A DNA stretch of 64,000 nucleotides from Microthyrium microscopicum. Lineage: Eukaryota. Shown here piece after piece: positions 27,404 through 47,240 of this stretch. Each line of letters begins with the position of its first letter. The first letter of the stretch is position 1. The stretch lies in NCBI GenBank assembly GCA_010405405.1, contig MU004238.1, positions 1,561,530-1,625,529 on the forward strand, in the 5' to 3' direction. Both the position numbers and the translations under genes were made by a program. Under the pieces are notes generated by a model that had not been told where the DNA came from, did not search any database, and worked only from the letters and a program-made list of their open reading frames with translations.

Positions 27404-27939
27404 GCTGAAGAGTGACTGAAGTAGACTGATCGATGTTCTCAGGAGTCAGCACTGATCAATGCGACTTGAATGTATAATGCTCGTTCTCGTGGCCAGACCA
27501 GCGCGAGCTACCTCCAGAGGTATTTCATGAACCTTAGCAAACCCGTAAGCACTAACCAGATCTGGATCACGCCAAGCGTAGGCTTTCAAGTTTCAAAGCA
27601 ACTTTGGTGTTTGACCATGGCGGATCTGATGGTTGAAGCAATCAAGTCCTCAAAGGAGGATGTTTTCAGGTGGCATGAGCAGTTTGGCAATCAATATCAT
27701 GATGGAGTCGAAATGTGGGCTGTATATGGACCCTTCGAGGGGGGTGATAGGTAATGTGGAGTTAGGTGGATGATCAGGCGCTAAGGCTCGAGACGCGGTG
27801 TTTGGCGACCTGAGTTTTGGTTGCCTCATTACCAACTCGCGTTCAAAAACATTGAAAATCAACACTTTTAATACTCTACAAATTCCTTTGCGCCATCTCC
27901 TCCATTACACCCAAATTCGATCAAGCATAGCAGTATGCC

Positions 27940-30900
27940 ATGAACGGAACTCCTCGTCTCCGGTCGGCTTTTCCAACCACTCCTCAACATGTTCCAGGCC
28001 ACCATCGTCCTGCTCGTCCTTCGTCATTAGCAAATGGCATCCGCCGCAAAACCAGTCTCCCTCCCGCTCAAAACTTCGGCGCATCTTCCACATCCCCGGT
28101 GATACCTTTGGACATACTAGATGGCGCGACTCAGCGTAGATTCGCTGTTGGCTTATATCTCGCGTTGTTTGCTTGGAAGTTGTCCGAGTGGTGGACACTA
28201 TACACTTCTGATGATACAGAGTCAGTCTGGCTATTCATGAAATGGATCTTCATAGACGGCCTATATTTGTTTGGGCTGCCCATACTGCGGATACCATGGC
28301 TTGAGTGGTCATCTTCTACGATGACTATTTCATTCTTTGCTCATGCATTTCTCAACCTGGTCCTTATGTTTAAATGGGGACTTCCTCTAGGCGCGTTATT
28401 CGAGTGGAGCATTAAGAAGGTATGGGATCAAGAGATGGCTGTGTCGGAACGGAGAGTCAAAACACAAAGCGTAGTGGATACATCTGCGCTCTTGCAAGGA
28501 AGACACATTATCAACATTCTCCCCGAAGGCTCTGCCATTCTCAACCCCAATTCGGAGATCTTTTGCGTTGGTGGCGATACGATCCATGTCACATTACCCA
28601 TACAAATCAACCAGACACAACCCGTCCTGATGGAATTGCTGCGACGGGATCTTGATGGCGAAGGAGAGGAGATTATAACAATCAAGGCATCTGAAAGCAA
28701 GAAGTTGAGAAAGACAGCTGTTGATGCGTACAAAAAGGCAAAAGGGCAACTTTCTCCAACCGATCCTCTCATTCTACGATACTCAGTTAAAAAGCCAGGG
28801 CAATATACTATCCAGAAGATTGTGGATGAATCGAAACTTGAAGTTCGACCACGTCCCTCAGAGGTTGTTGTAGTCTCCTGTCCATCGGCCAAAGTCATTT
28901 CGGAAAGCGTAGATCGCTGTCGTGGAGACTTGTCAGACATCTCGTTTGCTGTCGAAGGTGCTGCGCCTCTCAAGCTGAAATATCGAAAACTGGTCAGTGG
29001 CAAGACCATAGAAGCCTCGTTTCAAAGCATTCAACCTTCAGGATTTGTAGCTCCACATTCTCGCGGAAAGCAATTGACAACAACAAAAGCTTCGACTCTG
29101 GACATCTCGTGGGCGCAGTCTCAACAAGTAATTGTACCCATCAATGAGACTATGCTAGAACTAGGGACTTACAACTACGTTATTGACGAAGTGCAAGACT
29201 CCCTAGGCAATCGCGTGGTCTACTTCAACCGCCAGGAAGACGACCTTCTGTCAAATTCTAAGCATCCGGAAGTCAGCAAAGCAATGACTGTGTTTGACCG
29301 TCCTGCCATCTGGATTGACCCTCGAGCTGGTTGTAATAGAGAACGACCACTCAAGGTAGCAGCTGGCCAGGAAGTTGATCTTCCTCATGTTCTTGGCTCC
29401 GCAGGTCAGATTAACAATCGCTATACCTTTGCTGAAGAACACACCATCGAATACGTTTTCTACCCGGAATCCAGCTTGGGAGATGAAGATGAATCATCAC
29501 AAGTGTCAAAAGGTGTCTCACGGACCCTTAGAAAGCGCAAAGAATCGGACACCATTACCTTGAAAGAGCCGGGCTTGTACGTCATCAAAGATGTCTTCAC
29601 TAAACATTGTCGCGGAGAGGTTTCGGAGCCATCGTCCTGCCTATTGCAGAATCCTGCAAAGCCAGAAGTCAAGATTACTTCGAGTGAGATTACGCATAGA
29701 TGCGCAAATAGCCCCATTGGACTTCGAATAGGTTTCGATTTCGAGGGAACACCTCCATTCGTCGTACGATATATGGAACAACAGGATGGACGAAATCCAC
29801 GACAGCGAATTGAGAGATTCAAGACACACCGTGGTCAGATTGAAATTCGGCAAGATGATGCTGGACGGTACAAATACACCTTTCAGGAGATTGGCGATGC
29901 CTACTATGAAAGTCAAAAGATTCACGAAGTGCTTGAGCAAGATGTCAAGCCATCTGCATCAGCTCATATTACCGAGGCTTCCAAGGGCAATGTCTGTCTT
30001 GGTCAGTCTGCCAACTTTACTGTCAAGCTTGTTGGTGAGGCGCCTTGGACTCTGGAGTATGAAGTCATTCATGGCAAAACCAAGAAGAAGCATACTATCA
30101 ACGACGTTACAAATCCCGCTTACGAAATACAGCTTGCGGACTTTGCCGATGGTGGAGAGTATACACTCTCTTTGACTAGTGTCACCGACGCCTCGAAATG
30201 TAAAGAAACCCTCAAGGATGCCACCAGCTCCTTCAATGTTTGGAGTCAACGCCCCACTGCAGCATTTGGCAAGATTAATGGCAAGCGTTCTGCTAGTATG
30301 TTGGAAGGCAAGGCAATCAAATTACCAGTACAGTTCACCGGCCAAGGTAGCTTCAGTTACCAGGTCGTCCAAGTAGAAGGCGACAAAGCTGAAGTTCGAA
30401 CTGGTCAACCTGCATCCACTACATTCGATGTCACAACGGATGGTACTTATGTGCTCAACGCCATGTCTGATCAATACTGCTTTGGGGATGTCGACCCAAA
30501 TGCCGACAAATTCATAGTCTCTTGGATCCCTCGACCTGCGCTTTCCATTGCACAAAGCCCTGTCATCACCGAAAAATCTGGCAGATTTGACAAGCAAGAT
30601 GTATGCGAGGGTGAAGAAGACAACGCTGATATTGTTCTTGAAGGTAAGCAGGGCCTTGTTCATTTCTTTTCTTAGATACTAATATTTTCAGGTGCTCCTC
30701 CTTTCGACATCACATACGAGAAACATGCGAAGCCTGATGACAGTTCCAAGTTCATGAAACGATATCAAATCAGTTCGCCATTTGGACTCGCTTCTATTCC
30801 AATGGATACTGCCAAGGCTGGTACCTACGAGTATCGCTTCCTGGAGTTGTCGGACAGCAATTATGATCCCTTGAAATCGAGCAAACCTATCACGGTGCTG

Positions 30901-31809
30901 AATCACCGAGTTCGATCGCGTCCAAAAGCAACATTCACCAACCCCGGAACAGTATACAACTTCTGTACTACGTCAAGCCCCAATGATGAATCGATTCCCA
31001 TCAAGCTTACAGGTACTCCACCTTTCAGTATTGACCTTGATATTCGTCATACTGGTAGTGCCTCTCCTGAGTCTATGACTCTCGAGAAAATAGAATCGAA
31101 TACTTACGACCTCAAACTTCCACGACATTACCTGAAGTCTGGAGTTTCTAACCTGTCCATCCGTCGCGTACGAGATGCATTTGGGTGCCAGAGCAAGGTC
31201 GACACAACTGCACCACCTTCTCGAGTCCACGTCTCTGTTCACGAGCCACCAAATATCACCCCTATAGAAAAGGCGGAAGATTATTGTGTAGGCGAACGCA
31301 TTTCCTTCAGACTCACAGGTGTCCCACCATTCACAGTTCATTACACTTTCGGAGGTGAAAAGCGCAAAGCGTCCGAAAAGACTACTGAATTCACCCGCTT
31401 CAATGCTGATGCTGGCACTTTTGTCATCACTTCCATCTCCGATGCCAGCAGCAAATGCCAATTCACAACGCATCTTCAAAAAGTCATTCATCCTCTTCCT
31501 GGTGTCAAGATAAGCTCGGGTCGCGAAACACATGTCGACATTCACGAGGGCGGTGAAAGCGACGTAGTGTTTGAACTCATTGGCACTCCTCCTTTCGAAC
31601 TCACATATACTCGCTCGGAGTATACCAAAAAGGGTCGAAAGGGTCTCGTTCTTGAGACCAAGACAGAACGCACCGAAGAGCGCACTCTTCGCGCCAAGGA
31701 GTCGGAAGGCGGCGAGTATGAGCCAGTGGCAGTACGGGATAAATGGTGTTTGACGGACAAGAGCTCTGGTGCACGAGCGGCGCGTAAGGGGCAGAAGCTG
31801 TTGCAGTGA
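27940..31809 (+). CDS. POM152: Nuclear pore membrane protein Pom152
   Basis: MNGTPRLRSAFP start, TM region (LPILRIPWLE), GRHIINILPEGSA, repeated Ig-like G(T/A)PPF modules. Intron about 30644-30691 joins the two ORFs. Confidence 0.92.
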
Positions 31810-37104: not shown

Positions 37105-37860
37105 TCATCGATGCGGATGCTCCGCGGCATCATGCGTCTGCTTACACGCCAAACAGCACACGTACGATCCGCAAATCGTACACTTCATCTTGCCCCAGTA
37201 CCCACACATATCGCAAAACTTGCGCACCGGCGCTCCTGACGCTCTCTCCTTTGCGCGCGCACCAGTATAGCTCAACGCCGGCGCATTGATCAACTTATCC
37301 ATCGCCTCTTGTCCTGGCATACCAGGAACCCGCATCTTCACCAACTCCCTTTCCTCCTTCGTCAATCCTTCCCTCCCCTCCTCTTCTACCACCACATCCT
37401 CCACATCCCCCATACCAACATCCTCCTCCCTCCCACCCTCGCCCAACGCCGCCGCCACATCAGCCGCATGATGCGCCCACGTCTTCTCACTCTGCACCAC
37501 CCTCCTCACATTCGCCGTAATCTTCCTTCCCCCTTCCCCACCCTTAGCCCCCGTACGTTTCCACGCCGCGTCCGCAATAACCTTCTTCACCTTCTCCGGC
37601 AACACCACCTCCTGCTTGCCCGCATTATCCCTCGCAATCTCATCAAGCCGTGCCGAAAGTTTCGACGCTTGCGTCTTGGAGTGTGCGCCGGCTAGAATGT
37701 CTGCGGCGGAGCGGGCGGCGGCGCGCTTGGTGGTGGTGGTGCGCGCGGAGGAGGGGATGATGGCTTGTCGCGAGGGGTCGATGGCGGGCTCGAGGACGTA
37801 GGCCCAGCCGGGGGCTGCGGCGGTGGGTTTTGTGGTGGGGAGGATTTGGATTTGTGGCAT
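37105..37860 (-). CDS. VPS71: HIT-type zinc-finger protein, SWR1 subunit Vps71/Swc6
   Basis: N-terminal APGWAYV; LSYTGARA; PVRKFCDMCGYWGKMKCTICGSYVCCLACKQTH. Confidence 0.85.
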   Translation of the reverse strand: MPQIQILPTTKPTAAAPGWAYVLEPAIDPSRQAIIPSSARTTTTKRAAARSAADILAGAHSKTQASKLSARLDEIARDNAGKQEVVLPEKVKKVIADAAWKRTGAKGGEGGRKITANVRRVVQSEKTWAHHAADVAAALGEGGREEDVGMGDVEDVVVEEEGREGLTKEERELVKMRVPGMPGQEAMDKLINAPALSYTGARAKERASGAPVRKFCDMCGYWGKMKCTICGSYVCCLACKQTHDAAEHPHR

Positions 37861-38350
37861 TGTTTGTTTTTAGGATTGAGGATGGGGAATGGAGTTCGAT
37901 CCTTGAAGTGTTGATGGAGAACTAGAGCGGAGATTGATTAGATGGAGGTTTTTAAGTCCGTGATGGCTGGGAAAAATCATTGATGGTGGGGATGGTGGTT
38001 GGCAGGCACGACGGGAAGGCCAAGATGGGCTTTGAGACGGCTTGACTTTTCTTGACTTCTTGACTCTTTGGTCTTGACTTTACTTCATTCTTGTCTATAT
38101 TTGATATCTTCTACTTCTTTGCACATATCTGTTGATTCCTTGTCATTGTAACGACTCGCGCGCAAAAGATTTCTAGTCTCTACCAGGAAGCTCGCCAGCC
38201 GGATGATTCGGAAGCTCCAAAAGGTCCATTAATCGGAAAGCTTCGCTAACCGTGACTGAACTACTTGAGTTATTTCTCCCCTCGAATACATCAATTGACA
38301 GTTCGCTCGCGTCAGTCTCTGGGCCCTCGAGGCTCCTCGATCACAACAGA

Positions 38351-40005
38351 ATGGGACTCATCAACGTTCGAGATCTACTCGCCTTCCCAAATGGCGACAA
38401 CTCCACAGATACCGTCATTCGAGGCGCACATTTCAACTTGACGACACTCAAGTTTTTCAACTACACTCTATATTCCAACAATACGCTATCGAATAACTCT
38501 AATTGCTGGCTCATCTTGGACAACTATACACCCACTGCCCTCTACTCCAATGGCTCCTTCGTCAACGGCACATCATGCTACTCGCCCGTACTCCCTCTCG
38601 AGACTCGCGGTCGGCTCGGTGCCATATTCGGGGCCTTGTTCGGCATCAGTATAATGTTCACGCTTATAAACTTGAAAATGCATGGGCAACAATTCCTTCG
38701 CGAGGATAAGAGGTTCAGATTGGTCGGTCGGAGATGGCAGTGGTACTGGATGATCTTTATCGGCGCATGTGGAATGATAAGTTGCATAACTGGCATTGAT
38801 GTGGATCGAGATTATCTTCAAGATCTTGCTATAATATTGCAGAGTTTCTTCTACATGTGCATGGGACAATCCGCGGTTGCAGCTGTCTGGGAAGGAGTAA
38901 GACATTGGGGCAGTTGGCAGGAACGACAAATCGTGGACCGTGATCCTTTTTCATTGCCGCAAGATGATAAGAGAGGTCAAATTGAGTTTTACATGCCTCT
39001 GGTGTTTTACTTGTTTGATTTTATGGTAAGTCTCATGACATTGCTGATAGAATTCTTGCTAACACCCAACAGAGCTTCTTCCTCACAGCTCCACGATCAT
39101 GGACCAAGATCCCCAAACAAGGCGGCATCCAACAACAAACTACCGTCGCTGGCGTCGCTGCCACTGACGGCCGCTTCAAAGCCGGCGCCATCTTCCTCGG
39201 CCTTGCCTGGCTCGTCATCCTCTATTGTGTCAAGCACAACATTGCATACTACCGCTTACGCGCCCACCCCTCCCATGCTATGGAAAAACGCATGCTCAAC
39301 CCATTCACTGTCATCGGTGCCATCCGCTACTTACCACTGCGATTCATCCTCGCCATTCCTATCATAGCCGTACTCATCGGCTACAACAACGCCATGGCCT
39401 GGAACTTCAACATCAGCGTTATGAAGTACAACGTCGCTGTCGAGTGGCCTTACGCCCTCGGCTATGGGCCACCTCTACTTGTACTATTCATCTTCAATAT
39501 CTTCGGCTTCCTTGAGAGAAATGAGGACAAACAACTCATGCGGCAACGGGTAGACCGTGATCGTCGCGCAGATGAGTCATTGGGATATACGAAGAAACCT
39601 ACCTGGTGGAGCAAGGCGAGAGGCGATCACCATCTAGACGACATGTCACGTTTGCAGGATATGGTAGCTGACGAGGGCATCACGAGTACAGGTCCAAAGC
39701 GTGGTGGTGGGTATCAGGATGTGGAGCTCAAGGAGATGGGTGGACGACCACCGAATCCGCATCGGTCAACGTCCACGGCACGATTGACGGATGATGACGG
39801 CTTGCGCACGCGCAGTCCCGCCAGGGGACGGAACACGTCGTCTGTACGGACGGGCTCGTCTATGCTCTCGCCGGAGGCGGGAAGGCCACCGTGGCAGACT
39901 GATAGGTCGAATAGTCCGGGTGGGAACAGTATACTGACGACTGCGACGGGCACAACGCTGGCGGGTGAGAGGCAGCAGACAGTGAAGAGCATGCTGGATA
40001 TCTGA
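38351..40005 (+). CDS. Conserved fungal multi-pass membrane protein (DUF2434-like)
   Basis: HFNLTTL..NYTLYSNNTLSN, RLVGRRWQWYW, WEGVRHWGSWQERQ; intron about 39025-39073; several TM helices. Confidence 0.75.
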
Positions 40006-41679
40006 TAGGCGGTCAACTTGTTATGTTGGGCGGGTGCGTTTGGCATCACTGTGGAAAATGGAGTTTTATCACGCAGCATATTTAGTCTTTATGATGGACG
40101 GTGTGGCACATTCGTTGATACGTTAATGATTTCAATGTTAATAATTTATTGATTGCTTTAAGGCGTCAAATCTACATGTCTACACAGTGACTTCACAAAA
40201 TATCAACCGTTGCATTTTCGGAAATTTGGTCGCTGTCAGCAAATATGACGGAACAATGACGGAGATGACACCAAACTACAGATGATTGTTGTGCTGGCCC
40301 AAATCGAACCTCTCGCTGCGAAAATACGGTAGCATGCAATGAATAGTTCGACCTGAGTACCGTAGGCAGTCAAAAAGATGCACATTCGCGGTGATCCTGC
40401 TTGGGAGCCTTTCACTGCTGATGCATACGGACGAACCAGGTTTTCTATGGCATTTGCAGACTTTTTTTGGACCTGAGGATCCAGAGCAATGTTTTTAACT
40501 GGCGCAAGTTTAACTAGGTCTGAGCATTATTTTGCATCTTCGCGGCCGCCCAGGTTAGTGAGGGACAGGTTCGTTGGTGATTCAGTGAGCGGGTGGTCGG
40601 CTATTTCTGGTTTGGTCCCATACAAAGCAATTTGATATTGATGGAAGATGCATTTTCTGCAAATCCAACACAATTTACTGTTTTCAAGGATAAATTATAG
40701 GTATAGAATGATTGGATTATGCGTGCACAATAATTCTTTTTCGAAATAGAGTTTTCATTGTAACATAATCGTCCAGTGACTGATTGCTGCAGCTCCATCA
40801 AACCCCCCAATTCCGTATCGACGATAGGAGCCATAAGTTTGGTTGAGCTAAGCCTGTTCCTTGTGCGAGAGAGGAGCCGCTTTGTTGGTACTGTGATACA
40901 CGCGAGCCCGTCTTTCAGCATGATAACCGGTACACATCTTGAAAGCCTGAAATCAGTACCAGATTCCAACATCCTGAGCGGCCACACAATGCTGCCATAT
41001 GTAACAACCATATCCGATGCGCCTCATCCCTCTGTAATGTTTCATCATCAAGCAACTTACCTGCTGTATAATAGCAGTTGTTACTCAAGCCATGTTGCCC
41101 AGTGAGAGAGAATTATTTGATGAAGGCTGGGTACTGGAAGTTTTGTGCGGTACGCTATCAATTTTTCTTCGTCTACCTACCATGGATCCCCATCTCGTTC
41201 CCTTCGCAGCAAAACTTGGTACTCTCTGATGGATGAGTTTACTGATACCTTCTTGAACTGGTTTAGCGCAACTCTCGTCCAATATCTTGACACTGATGGC
41301 AGCGTTGGCGACGATACATGCCTTCTTCAAGCAGTTTAGCGCGGACTTTTTCTCAACATCAACACCGCAAACTCTGGTACGTGCCGTGCTCGACGATTGC
41401 TGATGCGCCGCCCTCTCGTACACACCTGTTCAGGCTTAGCGCGAAAGTTGGCCATCGCATCACTTGTCCCCCCTTCGGGGTACTTAAGGCCTCCTTCTCT
41501 CCGTTTCTTCTGTCTTTCTTTCTTTCTTCTCCATCCCTTCGGGGAAGCACCACTCACCACTATGTCTTCTTGACTCTGACATTTCCTTCTCCTTTGGCTG
41601 TCATGCCTTTTGGACTTGTCTTTCTTCTTTCTTTTTTTCTTTTTTTCCTCTTCAACATTCTTTCAACAACAACCTTCTC

Positions 41680-41940
41680 TTGACATGACTGTCGCTCCTT
41701 GACATCTCCACTGGTCTTTCACCATCACTGTCGCTCCTCACAATCACTGTCGGTCTTCAGCATCACCGTCGCTCCTCACCATCACTGTCAGTTTTGACAT
41801 CTCCACTGGTCTTTCACCATCACTGTCGCTCCTCACAATCACTGTCGCTCCTCACCATCACTGTCGGTCTTCATCATCACTGTCGCTCCTCACCATCACT
41901 GTCGGTCTTCATCATCACTGTCGCTCTCGACCATCAGCGT
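41680..41940 (+). repeat. 19-bp minisatellite (core ATCACTGTCG(C/G)TC), about 11 copies, with a ~95-bp higher-order duplication
   Basis: ATCACTGTCG recurs at 19-bp spacing (e.g. 41819, 41838, 41857, 41876, 41895, 41914); TTGACATCTCCACTGGTCTTTCACC occurs at about 41699 and 41794. Confidence 0.9.
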
Positions 41941-41969
41941 TCCTGTTCGCCATGGCATGTCTTCACTCT

Positions 41970-43817
41970 TGCCTGGGCCCTGACCGCACTCGAGGTTGGG
42001 GCCATAGGCGCTCTCGGCCCTTCGCTTGGGGTTGGCCAACTTCACTACCAACCCCGTGCGCCTTTCACGACACACTCTTGGGGCTGCCTGACGACCAATT
42101 TCCAGGTCGGCCCCACACGCCTCCGAGGACACCGTTCGCCTGGGGTTGGCCAACTTCACTGCCAACCTCGTGCGCTTTCACGACACACTCTTGGGGCTGC
42201 CTGATGACCAATTTCCAGGTCGGCCCCACACGCCTCCGAGGATACCGTTCGCCTGGGGTTGGCCAACTTCACTGCCAACCTCGTGCGCTTTCACGACACA
42301 CTCTTGGGGCTGCCTGATGACCAATTTCCAGGTCGGCCCCACACGCCTCCGAGGATACCGTTCGCCTGGGGTTGGCCAACTTCACTGCCAACCTCGTGCG
42401 CTTTCACGACACACTCTTGGGGCTGCCTGATGACCAATTTCCAGGTCGGCCCCACACGCTTCCGAGGATACCGTTCGCCTGGGGTTGGCCAACTTCACTG
42501 CCAACCTCGTGCGCTTTCACGACACACTCTCGGGGCTGCCTGATGACCAATTTCCAGGTCGGCCCCACACGCTTCCGAGGATACCGTCGCCTGGGGATTG
42601 GCCCACCTCACTGCCAATCCTCCAAGCTTTTCACGACACAACTTTCGGGGTTGCTTGATGACCAATTTCCAGGTGGCCCCACACGCTTCCGAGGCTTTCC
42701 TTTCGCTTGGGGATTGGCCCACTTCACTACCAATCCCCCAAGCCTTTCACGACAAACATCACCGGCTTGCGCCACGATCGCACTCGAGATCGTGGCGCCA
42801 AGCTATCCAACGACATGCTCACCGGCTTGCGCTTCGATCGCACTCGAGATCGGAGCGCCAAGCTCTTTCGGCCTTCGTCTGGGGCATCATCATCACCACA
42901 AAGATGGTGCCCACAGGCATTCCATCGACAAACATCACTGGCTTGCGCTTCGATCGCACTCGAGATCGGAGCGCCAGGCTCTTTCGGCCTTCGTCTGGGG
43001 CATCATCACCACTACAAAGATGGTGCCTGCAGGCATTCCATCGACAAACCTCACCGGCTTGCGCCACGATCGCACTCGAGATCGTGGCGACAGGCCATGC
43101 GACGACAAACATCATGAGCCAATCCGATGACCAATATTCGGATTGGCTCCCACGCTTTTTCGGCCATCGCATTGCAGTCTGGCACCACCAAAAAGCCGGA
43201 CTGCCATGCTATTCACAGACACCATCAACGCTTGCGCACTGATCGCACTCGAGCTCGGTGCGCCAAGCTTTCTCGGCCATTCGCTTGGAGAGTGGCATTA
43301 CCACCAAGCCGCTCTCCCAAGCTTTCATCGACGACAATCGCATCGGCTTCGACCGCACTCGAGGTTGGAGCCGCATGCGCTCTCGGCCATCCGCTTGGAG
43401 AGCGGCATTACCACCAAGCCGCTCTCCCAAGCTTTCATCAACAACATTCGCATGGGCTTCGACCGCACTCGAGGTTGGAGCCGCATGCGCTCTCGGCCAT
43501 CGCCTGGGCTTGATCACCACCACAAAGATTGAGCCCACAGGCGTCCCAACGACAACCATCACCGGCTTACGCCACGACCGCACTCGAGGTCGTGGCGATA
43601 GGCCATCCGAAGACAACCATCACCGGCTTGCGTCACGACCGCACTCGAGGTCGTGATGCCAGGCCATCGACGACATCATCAACGCATGGGCTTCAACCGC
43701 ACTCGAGGTTGGAGCCTACATGCGCTTTCGGCATCAACACCACCCACCACCACCACCACCAACCAAACAAAGCCAATGCTTGGGCTCTGGTCATACTCCA
43801 AGACCGGAGCCACAAGC
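41970..43817 (+). ncRNA. Putative structured non-coding RNA: array of about 30 covarying stem-loops with conserved loop classes
   Basis: Eleven hairpins with loop GCACTCGA, about 13 with CACCAC/CACT-rich loops and about 7 with (T/C)GACCAAT loops. Stems vary but keep pairing, with many G-T(U) pairs on the + strand. No coherent reading frame. Transcription is not shown by the sequence. Confidence 0.6.
42025..42745 (+). repeat. Tandem 113-bp repeat, about 6.3 copies (recently amplified two-hairpin unit)
   Basis: GTTGGCCAACTTCACT at 42031, 42145, 42258, 42371, 42484 (period 113-114), with more diverged copies at about 42596 and 42712. Confidence 0.95.
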
Positions 43818-44520
43818 CTCTCAAACAACCGGCGCTTGATGGGAGCGTGCCATTTATTTTGTCGATTCGTTGTCAGCAGCTTCGATTTCTTCGTCGCAGA
43901 CAAAACACGGAGTCCAGGGACAGCTCAATCGAGCCTCAAAGTCTCATGGCCAGCTCCGAGCATCAAGTGTGCAGATACCCAGATACCCCGGTGTCTCACG
44001 GAGTCAGTGACTTGTCACTGGCTCCGGGAGGCTCGTGCTCGCCAGTCTGTCAGCTTTCTGAGACGTCAGTTTGAAAACAGTTGGCGAGAGGATCCCTGCC
44101 GTACCAGCCTGTCACCATTTCAGTCTCCAGTGGATACCTCTGAAGACAGCCGGCGGGAGGCCTCGCAGGCCAACCCCCATTTCTGCCTTTTGTACACAGG
44201 TTCGTCCGAGCTTAAGGAGACTTGGGGGCGCTTGCAGCGAGGTTGGTGGACATTTCAGAGTTCAGACTTTCGTAAGCCTGCCGTTTCTCTGCATTTGGCT
44301 GATCACCAAATCAAAGCAGACCGAGGCAGGCTTGATTCTTCTTGGGCATTTCAGAGCCCCGTTTGCATTAGGTACGTATACGGTCGGTCGGGCATTTCAG
44401 AGCCCACTTCGCATACGCATACGCATACGTGGTAAGAATGATGTGGAAGAAGTCGAGGCGGTCGTGATGGCCCGGTCCACTGGGGCGTGGAGTCGGGTCA
44501 AGTCTTTGCGCATTTCGGAT

Positions 44521-44566
44521 TTTTCTGGACTTCTGGTTTCTGGTTTCTGGTTTCTGGTTTCTGGAC
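44521..44566 (+). repeat. (TTTCTGG)n heptamer microsatellite, about 6 copies
   Basis: TTTTCTGGACTTCTGGTTTCTGGTTTCTGGTTTCTGGTTTCTGGAC; a (GCATAC)3 run lies nearby at about 44411. Confidence 0.85.
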
Positions 44567-46042
44567 TGTAGACTCTCTGAATTGTAGAATGTAGATTCTG
44601 GCCTGTAGACTCTGGGATCTGGATTGCTCGGAACACAGTTCCTGACTTTCAAGCGTCTTGAGCATAAATCATTTTTTTAACAAGGGAATTTTTCCCGCAC
44701 CTTTATCTTTTACATTGTCTTCTCCACTTGTGGGGATTGCGAGGTAGATGATCAAGGTTCATGGTGAAGTGAATGGTAAGCAGCGATTCAAAAGCTTGGT
44801 CGACTTTCCGCGTCTTGGTTTTCTCTCGCAATCAGGAATGTTGTCCAGGAATGTGTCGTACTATGTGACGCTGTGGATGTGACGCTTCATCTTGAGTCCT
44901 TGACACTGCTTTGCTCCGAGCAAATTGCTCTCGAATAGGTGTAGAATGCTCTTCTCATCACATCCCGAGACCAGGAAGAATCCTTTCATGAAACGTATGC
45001 GGTAAAGTTTGTTGCAACATCATCTCCCCACATAGAAAGCTGAAAAGGGGTACAGGCAATTGAAGCACAGACATGAAGTTACGATGGAGCATTGCAGGGT
45101 TGGCCACTTCAGCAAAACCCCAAATTCCCAAGTCGCTCATCTTTAAGACGCTTGATTATGCTCCCGTTCGAGGCCTTTTCATATTCTGAAGAAGCCAAAC
45201 GGTAAATCTGATTTTTCTGGATTTTTGGAAAGTCTCCAAAAATAATTTCAAAGCGTGTAAATGTGGTAAATGAGACTCGATTATTCAATATCTTTTGCTT
45301 TTTGCTGTTGTGGAGTTGACAAGGAAGCCCCCTAAATTACTGGAGACTACTCCGTGCCCCTAAGTTAGTCACCCAAGAGCCCCCATAATTTAGCGACTCC
45401 AAAATGTCGACAAATAAGTATCTATTAGATTCTAAAGCTCAACGTCAACAACCACATTTAAGTGTCACTTTATAGCTTCATAATATCAAGCATAGCGCCA
45501 ATGTCGTTTTATTCATTGAAAAAGTTGGCTCGTTATGGTGTAATAAATGCTTTCAAAAAATGTGTTTCTTGCACTTTTTGATTTCGCCTTCAGACTTCAG
45601 CCTTGTCGTCAGCCTTGTTGATGGAGAGCAGATAGCTCAGGGTTTGATGTATGATCCAGCTGCTGTGCTGTGAGCCCAAAATCTAATGGGCACCTTGATC
45701 ACGTAAGAAATGGTGTTGTTCACTTCCTCGGCATGGTTCAAGCTCTTTTGTTCGTTAACCGTTCGAAGTGGGTGAGTGAATGCCGTTGTGTAATATGAAA
45801 GTATATCCCCACTCCCCATTCCAAGAAGAGCCATAACCTTGCACATATCCACATTCAACATGACAATTTCGAGAACAACGAATGCAAGACATAAAAGTAA
45901 GAATCGTATTCGCTGTCAGCTAACCCGATCATATCATCATAGCCTCGCGGCTCATGTATCTAAGAAGGTATATAGAACTATATCAGCAAAAGCATATAAA
46001 CCCATAAATCAAAGCCCAGGTCTAAAACTCCATATCCCATCA

Positions 46043-47240
46043 TTACACAGTGTCTCCATTTCCTCGTCTAAACCGGCTAAATAGTCCCTTCTTCGCCTTT
46101 TTCACATGGACAGGTGGTGTCGGGTTTGCAGCAGCTTGCGCATTCAACTTCGCCATCTCATTATAGTCGAATGGTTGGTTCCAGCGATGCATTGGAATTT
46201 CGCCCAGCTTCGTACTATCTGACGCAAACGTGTATAAAGACGGCGTCATCTTGTCCATTCTGCGTCGTCTTATCTCTTCGAGTGGATCGCGGCCTCCTGA
46301 CAGTGTATGTTTGTGGGACGCCTTCTGTGCTGGCGATTTAGTCTCACGACCATGGCTTGTTGTGGGCCGGTGATGCGAGTACTGGGGAGGTGAAGGTGGT
46401 GGTGTTGGGAGCGCAGATGATTGGCCATATGCGAGATTTGGTACGCTTTTGTTACTGGGTAGTTCGTAGAGCGGTGTCAGTGGTGGAGAAGCTGCTGGTG
46501 TTGGTGGAGCGGCTTGATATCTTGGAGCAGTGGAGCGAGAGGATTGCGATGTTTGTGAATTCAGTGATTGTGAGGATTGGAGGCGAGAACTCGATGGTGT
46601 CTTTTTGCGTACATGTGGTCTTATGATTGCTAGTTGAGGAGCAGATGCATTTGCGCTTTCGACGCGGCGGATTATGGAAATCTTGCTGTCTAGGCGAGTA
46701 TCTCGCTTCTTATCCGTCTTCTTTTTGGCAGCCTTGTCTAATTTTGTGGATGGTTTCAGGAGGTTGAGACTTGAGCGGGAGAGTCGGTATGATAGCTGGC
46801 TGAGAGCATCGATGGCTTCCATCCTAGATGTCTCTGAGAGACTTGTCAATCTCCCATAATCCAGATCACCACCCTTCTTGCCACCACTTAGGAAAGTCGA
46901 AATGATTGAAACGAGGCCGTTGTTCAATTTCAGTAACACGGCTGTTAAGGAAGCGTGTACTTTCGCTTTCATACAATTAGTTTTCAGTCATTCTATGATC
47001 CAGAAAAAGCTTACTATCGCCCTCCCTAAACCTCTCTCCTTGCAATGCGTAATTCTTCGAGTACTCCGCATGTATATCCAATGGCCCCTTCTTCAAACTC
47101 GAGCTCAACCTCGTCTCGTCCAACGCCGCCTTCTCCTCCTTCTTGCGCTTTCTCCTCTTCTTCAACTTCTTGAACACATCCAACCCACTCGTAAACGACG
47201 TTATAAGCGCCAACACCGACGAATCCGTACTCTGCGCCAT
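46043..47240 (-). CDS. Hypothetical protein (basic, Ser/Pro-rich C-terminus), 2 exons
   Basis: Exon 1 MAQSTDSSVLALITSFTSGLDVFKKL..GERFREGD, intron about 46968-47014, exon 2 containing YTFASDSTKLGEIPMHRW. Confidence 0.7.

Follow-up and report, generated by a model that had tools for sequence, protein, structure and literature searches.

Several long non-coding RNAs (lncRNAs) are built from repeat modules and serve as multivalent platforms for proteins, namely, Xist with its A-repeat, roX with its stem-loops, NORAD, hsr-omega, and S. pombe meiRNA, and bacterial sponge RNAs of the CsrB/RsmZ type display repeated GGA motifs in their hairpin loops. For fungi, we found no described hairpin array in the open-access literature. 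In this study, we characterize a tandem array of hairpins at 41971-43817 on the + strand of a 64,000-nt stretch (hereafter the window) of contig MU004238.1 from the ascomycete Microthyrium microscopicum (GenBank assembly GCA_010405405.1, positions 1,561,530 to 1,625,529 of the forward strand). A reading of the same stretch made from its letters (hereafter the sequence-only reading) had described a chain of about 30 uniformly built hairpins with covarying stems and fixed loops and had proposed it as a modular structured non-coding RNA (ncRNA). Our analysis confirms this observation, which proves stronger than first shown, and supports its interpretation in part. The locus is a non-coding higher-order tandem array, probably restricted to its lineage, that is foldable specifically in the + strand, and its sequence shows the apparent imprint of selection for a folded + strand whose loops are sequence-specific. 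From these features we infer transcription, protein binding, and a cellular role, and we tentatively favor, at somewhat less than an even chance, a multivalent hairpin-array ncRNA of ~2 kb that would display ~30 loops as a binding platform.

Hairpins were called with ViennaRNA by folding the region in full under a restricted pair span and then every unit singly. This gave 32 hairpins of 34-43 nt each on the + strand of 41971-43817, in line with the ~30 counted before; a long-loop pair that the region-wide fold placed at 43730-43774 is spurious. Over ~1.85 kb without a gene, units of ~57 nt with one hairpin each form a tandem array of higher order. Tandem Repeats Finder (TRF) reported periods of 113 nt (6.3 copies, 94% matches), 116 nt (2.4 copies), 110 nt (2.2 copies), and 61 nt (2.1 copies), and the inner copies of the 113-nt sub-array are 99% identical. 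With its head-to-tail copies and nested periods (TRF; repeat families D1-D11), the locus is a tandem repeat of the minisatellite or satellite type. Its parts, from 5′ to 3′, are the following:

41971..42009, + strand: first hairpin, class A, with the loop GCACTCGA (ViennaRNA; match to covariance model R1 with E = 7.8e-16).
42021..42743, + strand: sub-array of 113-nt dimers in 6.3 copies, each with a class C hairpin, a TTTCACGACAC linker, a class D hairpin, and a CACGCYTCCGAGG linker (TRF; family D1; folding; alignment).
42764..43724, + strand: sub-array of class A and class B hairpins in units of 116, 110, and 61 nt, with 10 of the 11 class A and 6 of the 7 class B hairpins (TRF; folding; covariance model).
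43116..43149, + strand: lone D-like hairpin whose 12-bp stem is perfect, with the loop TGACCAATAT (inverted repeat I3; folding).
43730..43774, + strand: CAC-rich stretch with a (CAC)n microsatellite and no stem, in the slot where class B is expected (TRF rows 43738-43765; folding).
43778..43817, + strand: last hairpin, B-like, with the loop ATACTCCAA (ViennaRNA; match to covariance model R1 with E = 6.5e-06).

The 32 hairpins belong to four loop families, A (n = 11), B (n = 7), C (n = 7), and D (n = 7). All class A hairpins share the loop GCACTCGA (GCACUCGA as RNA), and the 10-mer CGCACTCGAG has 11 occurrences, every one of them inside the array and on the + strand. Class B has ACCAC-rich loops of 9-11 nt, class C has loops of the CAACTTCACT type (CAACUUCACU as RNA), and class D has loops of the ATGACCAATTTC type (AUGACCAAUUUC as RNA). 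Hairpins of classes A and B consist of a basal stem of 5-6 bp, one unpaired nucleotide on the 3′ side, an upper stem of ~10 bp, and a loop of 8-11 nt. The sequence-only reading had ascribed one architecture to the whole chain, most clearly to classes A and B, and this description suits A and B well but fits C and D more poorly, since class C stems have 12-13 bp including an internal mismatch, and class D stems run from 8 bp through a 3′ bulge to 4 bp under a 12-nt loop. Stem lengths across all hairpins are 11-16 bp. The extra unpaired nucleotide lies on the 3′ arm in 23 of the 32 hairpins, is matched symmetrically in six, is absent in two, and lies on the 5′ arm in one, which is an alternative fold. 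Loop orientation is uniform (32/32). The alignment resolves a two-hairpin unit, with A or D in one slot and B or C in the other, and both types of linker reported earlier were recovered: TCTCGGCCAT-like or CCGAGG-like sequences stand 3′ of the A/D slot, and TTTCAYCGACAAAC-like sequences stand 3′ of the B/C slot. The CAC run at 43730-43774 looks like a class B loop that has expanded and lost its stem. The class A loop holds the self-complementary motif UCGA (CUCGAG with the closing G), and class D loops hold AAUU or AAUAUU, so that loop-loop kissing between copies or molecules is conceivable.

We examined how strongly each strand folds. Over 1 kb (42740-43739), the + strand reached -474.5 kcal/mol against -321.3 ± 7.6 kcal/mol in 20 dinucleotide shuffles (z = -20.2), and its centroid structure was a clean row of hairpins, whereas the - strand of the same kilobase reached -461.4 against -406.6 ± 9.8 kcal/mol in shuffles (z = -5.6) and formed a tangle of long-range pairs. 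Taken one by one, 28 of the 32 hairpins were more stable in the + version and 4 in the - version, with energy sums of -718.4 and -586.6 kcal/mol, respectively. The unpaired segments of the + strand (951 nt) contain 10.5% G and 38.3% C, and this scarcity of G lets the + strand fold as discrete local hairpins. Imperfect pairs were then counted by aligning each 5′ arm with the reverse complement of its 3′ arm under strand-neutral scoring, which avoids the G·U bias of folding programs. In 27 distinct hairpins, this alignment yielded 348 Watson-Crick pairs, 35 G·T, 1 A·C, and 11 other mismatches. When boundaries were widened by 5 nt and the arms were aligned locally, 26 distinct arm pairs gave 28 G·T versus 2 A·C (binomial p = 8.7e-7), and 21 versus 2 were left when only positions flanked by Watson-Crick pairs were counted; because copies have inherited many of the wobbles in common, the independent G·T events are fewer than these counts. 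Class A alone has wobbles at seven different stem positions and no A·C at all. The excess of G-T among the non-Watson-Crick positions of the + strand, which the sequence-only reading had pointed out, is thus borne out under scoring that favors neither strand.

The ratio of 35 G·T to 1 A·C speaks against a role as cruciform or duplex DNA, for which symmetry between the strands is predicted. It is extremely improbable that the locus is a set of palindromic duplex-DNA sites for dimeric transcription factors, or else a protein-coding repeat. Each unit is indeed palindromic in duplex form, but such sites should keep the sequence of their half-sites, whereas here the sequence varies and what is kept, on a single strand, is complementarity. 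The + strand also has long open frames, for example, one of 269 aa at 42321-43130. Nevertheless, a coding tandem repeat was rejected: the periods of 113, 116, 110, and 61 nt are not multiples of 3, and no frame is preferred, the three + strand frames being open to a similar extent (5-9 stops in 615 codons each). Pfam recognized no domain in the six translated array frames, and neither the frame 42321-43130 nor the frame 43243-43656 has a homologue among the near-length proteins of a collection of 5.8 billion proteins.

Pair statistics were computed for class A only (11 sequences, 16 pairs); the MAFFT alignment of classes B and C was not in structural register, so that classes B, C, and D were described hairpin by hairpin. 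In class A, 98.3% of the 176 cells pair, compared with 82.5 ± 1.9% when partners were shuffled, and 0 of 500 shuffles attained the observed value. Both sides changed in 9 of the 16 pairs, as opposed to 0-1 pairs when the partner columns were slid by 1-3 positions, a control that keeps the relatedness of the copies. The covariation score was 0.547, against 0.03-0.08 in the slid controls, and again none of the 500 shuffles attained it. Compensatory changes in excess of relatedness-preserving controls, the sign of selection on pairing, were therefore found for class A, among paralogues of one array. They do not trace back to one inherited split of class A, since several changes are private and others are mutually incompatible: hairpin A43625 has a private double change from C-G to U-A at pair 14-37, hairpin A43230 has one at pair 15-36, hairpin A43564, which together with A43625 forms neighboring 61-nt copies, is the sole carrier of A-U (A-T) at pair 11-42, and of 15 pairings between double-change characters, 4 contain each of the four combinations. 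A wobble, U16·G35, is kept beside the compensated pair 15-36 in five otherwise diverged members. By minimum counts, the 8 loop columns required 0 changes, whereas the 32 stem columns required 29 and the 10 flank columns 16, and the invariance of the class A loop has P = 0.0015 if loops change at the rate of stems. In class B, six differing upper stems (mean identity 42%) are all paired and carry related loops of the ACCAC type. These results uphold the earlier description of covarying stems with fixed loops, and the covariation also persists once duplication history is allowed for, within the limits of paralogue data.

The main and serious rival to selection on a folded strand is template switching. 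On this account, which we consider rather unlikely, the array is a minisatellite of hairpins that has no function or is selfish, in which slippage and unequal crossing-over multiplied a quasi-palindromic monomer, the arms were kept complementary by replication template switching (quasipalindrome correction) and by conversion between copies, and the wobble bias came from strand-asymmetric mutation input or from a greater stability of G·T in the extruding strand. Template switching and cruciform processes, however, are blind to the strand that carries G·T, yet the count is 35 versus 1; the known mutational asymmetries that accompany transcription and replication are far smaller than 35 to 1. The minisatellite account is favored by the higher-order repeats with recent copies (the 113-nt copies at 99% and the periods of 116, 110, and 61 nt), by degenerate units such as the mismatched class C hairpins that have lost their bulge and the CAC-microsatellite slot at 43730-43774, and by the lack of relatives in a metagenome pattern scan and in the near-length protein search. 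In that scan of metagenome contigs, a three-part loop-linker-loop pattern, which has 5 matches in the window, hit 67 loci with one match each; none of the 67 was similar to the array by blastn, and one contained the loop motif twice. We read these 67 matches as chance.

Template switching makes further predictions that can be compared with the array. In published work, it is described as creating hairpins and making multi-base compensatory changes at once (PMC8794818), as homogenizing the arms of inverted repeats in yeast (PMC8604942; PMC3820800), and as inverting the spacer when it proceeds across it (PMC8604942; PMC8794818). The statement in the sequence-only reading that neutral satellite drift would not be expected to give paired substitutions was accordingly overstated, since template switching at quasipalindromes can give them without selection (PMC8794818, PMC8604942). 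In the array, occasional spacer inversion would be expected, but 0 of 32 loops are inverted; the bulge should have been erased, but it is kept on the 3′ side in 23 of 32 hairpins; and old wobbles should have vanished, but U16·G35 persists in the five class A members mentioned above. Eight invariant loop columns between variable stems and flanks are likewise not explained by template switching. Repeat-induced point mutation (RIP), which goes with a high TpA/ApT index, a low (CpA+TpG)/(ApC+GpT) index, and AT enrichment, was rejected as the source of the transitions: the TpA/ApT index was 0.20, the (CpA+TpG)/(ApC+GpT) index was 1.44, and the GC content of the array (0.595) is above that of the window (0.483).

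To relate the array to known RNA families, the interval 40000-46000 was searched on both strands with cmscan against Rfam 15 up to E = 1, and no family came near its gathering score, which agrees with the earlier failure to recognize a known RNA family. The sole match, to the plant microRNA family MIR2933 on the - strand, scored 22.3 bits (E = 0.37), the gathering score of that family being 70. This far sub-threshold match, together with the regular hairpin spacing and conserved linkers that would suit repeated cleavage, is what can be said for a precursor that an RNase III-type or other nuclease would process into numerous small RNAs in place of an intact scaffold. We regard such a precursor as improbable. 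The stems have only 11-16 bp, and the duplex of a Dicer product is longer; moreover, the arms vary while the loops are fixed, and products drawn from the arms would call for the reverse pattern. A cluster of microRNA or microRNA-like RNA (milRNA) precursors was rejected on similar grounds: such precursors have a stem long enough for a ~21-nt duplex and an arm that is more conserved than the loop, whereas here the stems are too short and the loop is conserved. The short stems and conserved loops thus weaken the small-RNA precursor that the sequence-only reading had offered as an alternative.

The loops contain 0-2 G, and GGA occurs in none of the 14 distinct loops, so the comparison with CsrB/RsmZ that had been drawn from the sequence holds as a conceptual mode of action and fails as membership. 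An engineered reporter array of the MS2, PP7, or boxB type was set aside; these hairpins have a bulged A on the 5′ side and other loops, and the natural flanks and degenerate copies of the array argue against a construct.

Two elements upstream of the hairpins enter into the reading that we favor:

41553..41681, + strand: pyrimidine-rich (CT) block upstream of the repeats, one of two places in the 64 kb where a 100-nt window is at least 82% pyrimidine on the + strand.
41699..41936, + strand: G-poor 19-nt tandem repeat TCACCATCACTGTCGCTCC in ~11.5 copies that form no hairpins and adjoin the array on its upstream side (TRF; repeat family D2).

The 19-nt repeat has higher-order periods of 38, 57, and 95 nt. 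It is loosely similar to the CATCACC linker plus the start of the class A 5′ arm; perhaps it is a side branch of the array unit that has no hairpin.

In the hairpin-array ncRNA that we favor, a + sense transcript of ~2 kb would start near the CT block at ~41.6 kb, which may be a promoter or leader, and would include the G-poor 19-nt repeat. The folded RNA would be a string of ~32 independent hairpins with four C/A-rich loop families, namely, A with GCACUCGA, B with ACCAC-rich loops, C with CAACUUCACU, and D with AUGACCAAUUUC. One or more RNA-binding proteins would read the fixed loops in a sequence-specific manner, and the stems would need only to pair, with neighbors differing in sequence so that every hairpin folds locally. 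Through its repeated loops, the array would act as a multivalent platform or sponge. The fuller proposal, that this is a hitherto undescribed fungal ncRNA whose ~2-kb transcript, made up almost wholly of ~32 covarying independent hairpins with four fixed loops (one of them with UCGA), works as a multivalent scaffold, a sponge, or a condensate seed for loop-specific RNA-binding proteins, is possible, and we place it well short of an even chance.

Several observations weigh against the reading that we favor. First, with DNA folding parameters the asymmetry between the strands is the same (z = -20.3 for the + strand and -8.1 for the - strand), so that the sequence does not by itself tell RNA from single-stranded DNA. 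Second, the covariation is drawn entirely from paralogous copies of a single array, with duplication, conversion, and template switching as confounders of the counts. Third, the 113-nt copies are very young (99% identity), and class C hairpins have a C/T mismatch and no bulge; these properties resemble the dynamics of a satellite rather than a tuned RNA. Fourth, no known protein-binding motif was recognized in the array. The YCAY motif of Nova and other KH-type proteins occurs there at twice its density in the window, but its count of 75 is within the dinucleotide expectation (63.8 ± 7.7), and no specific enrichment was seen. Finally, the only other CT block of the window (37333-37447) lies inside the zf-HIT coding frame (37105-37869, - strand) and not ahead of any large frame, so the promoter reading of the block at 41553-41681 lacks an internal control.

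The first of these points is the one on which a folded single-stranded DNA draws. The array could be the relic or cargo of a mobile element with single-stranded DNA hairpins (a Helitron-like, HUH-type end) or have some other role as folded single-stranded DNA, which we judge to be decidedly improbable. Besides a strand asymmetry that is unchanged under DNA parameters, the conservation of structure over sequence and the extrahelical base of the array are reminiscent of sites recognized as single-stranded DNA. By contrast, Pfam scans of 38 large frames from the window gave no domain of a transposase, Rep protein, or helicase. Across the remaining 62 kb, the covariance model gave nothing below E = 1, and blastn with the array unit gave just three 15-nt matches (E = 0.4), so no dispersed copy was seen there. 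No terminal repeats were found flanking the array, and CTRR stands at the distance expected for Helitron ends after 0 of 32 hairpins. An array of Helitron-type or other transposon ends was rejected for want of an enzyme, a dispersed copy, and CTRR in the 64-kb window. The match to a known transposon for which the sequence-only reading had left room was likewise absent from the frames and the sequence, a result that covers this window. We infer RNA rather than single-stranded DNA because the array looks static and single-copy, lies in a gene-rich arm, and has no enzyme of a single-stranded DNA mobile element nearby, and because a G-poor leader and a CT block with the same strand bias lie upstream.

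As a whole, the window is unremarkable nuclear DNA of an ascomycete, densely packed with genes. Its genes encode RasGEF, CCCH zinc-finger, TPR, ESCO acetyltransferase, and CH/IQ-domain proteins, two ubiquitin hydrolases, a P450, POM152, and F-box/transglutaminase, zf-HIT, and DUF2434 proteins. The array is situated in the middle of a gap of ~6 kb (40006-46042) without a Pfam-recognizable frame, bordered convergently by a DUF2434 frame on the + strand that extends to 40005 and a - strand frame ending at 46043; elsewhere in this gene-dense housekeeping region, genes are spaced every 2-3 kb. Downstream of the array, the gene-free gap contains two microsatellites, (CGCATA)x3.3 at 44410-44429 and (TTTCTGG)x6 at 44522-44564. 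The genes on either side of the array are those of DUF2434 and UCH. The DUF2434 domain is split over the overlapping frames 38207-39367 and 39019-40005, which fits an intron; for this protein, a protein atlas narrowed the origin no further than Ascomycota. The POM152 frame (27931-31809) has a single in-frame stop at 30673-30675, with contiguous halves in the same frame and an Ig-like domain across the break; this stop is probably a short in-frame intron, the alternative being a nonsense codon.

The outcome would matter in either case. If the + strand is transcribed, the locus would be a natural eukaryotic hairpin-array RNA whose signature of selection (wobbles on one strand, compensated stems, and fixed loops) is legible from one genome, and it would provide a structurally defined and easily testable fungal lncRNA object whose four loop motifs could be used as baits. 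If it is not transcribed, it would be a clean case of DNA-level processes that mimic RNA covariation, which matters for every covariation-based RNA gene finder. Either way, covariation among tandem paralogues does not alone prove an RNA gene.

The array has points in common with several described systems. Like bacterial REP/BIME elements and integron attC sites, it conserves structure more than sequence, has an extrahelical base on one arm, and forms strand-specific hairpins; those elements, however, are prokaryotic, dispersed or associated with cassettes, and linked to RAYT or IntI, whereas the array is eukaryotic, occupies one locus, and has neither gene within the 64 kb. It resembles the quasipalindromes maintained by template switching in its imperfect inverted repeats and in arms with matching changes (PMC8794818; PMC8604942), and it departs from them in its lack of loop inversions (0/32), in its retained bulges and old wobbles, and in its one-strand bias. 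With dyad-symmetric satellites and minisatellites (for example, PMC5889037) it has in common a head-to-tail arrangement, higher-order periods, copies of very recent origin, and confinement to one locus within a gap between genes. Satellites that adopt non-B DNA are strand-symmetric and lie in AT-rich heterochromatin, unlike this array, which tolerates mismatches on one strand, has invariant loops, and is located in a gene-dense arm.

Two further systems depend on repetition for their action on proteins. CsrB/RsmZ sponges have many small hairpins with a fixed loop motif and variable stems, as the array does; they differ in being bacterial, in their size of ~100-350 nt, in having Rfam models of their own, none of which matched, and in their GGA loops (0/14 in the array). 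Repeat-module lncRNAs are likewise long, non-coding, and composed of tandem units, each of which exposes the same short motif in a hairpin or linker. They are proven transcripts with proven partners, whereas the array is known here from its sequence, and they do not have its ~32 discrete hairpins of 11-16 bp, its four loop families, or its strong stem covariation. The array resembles scaffold RNAs and bacterial sponges in its possible mode of action and belongs to neither group.

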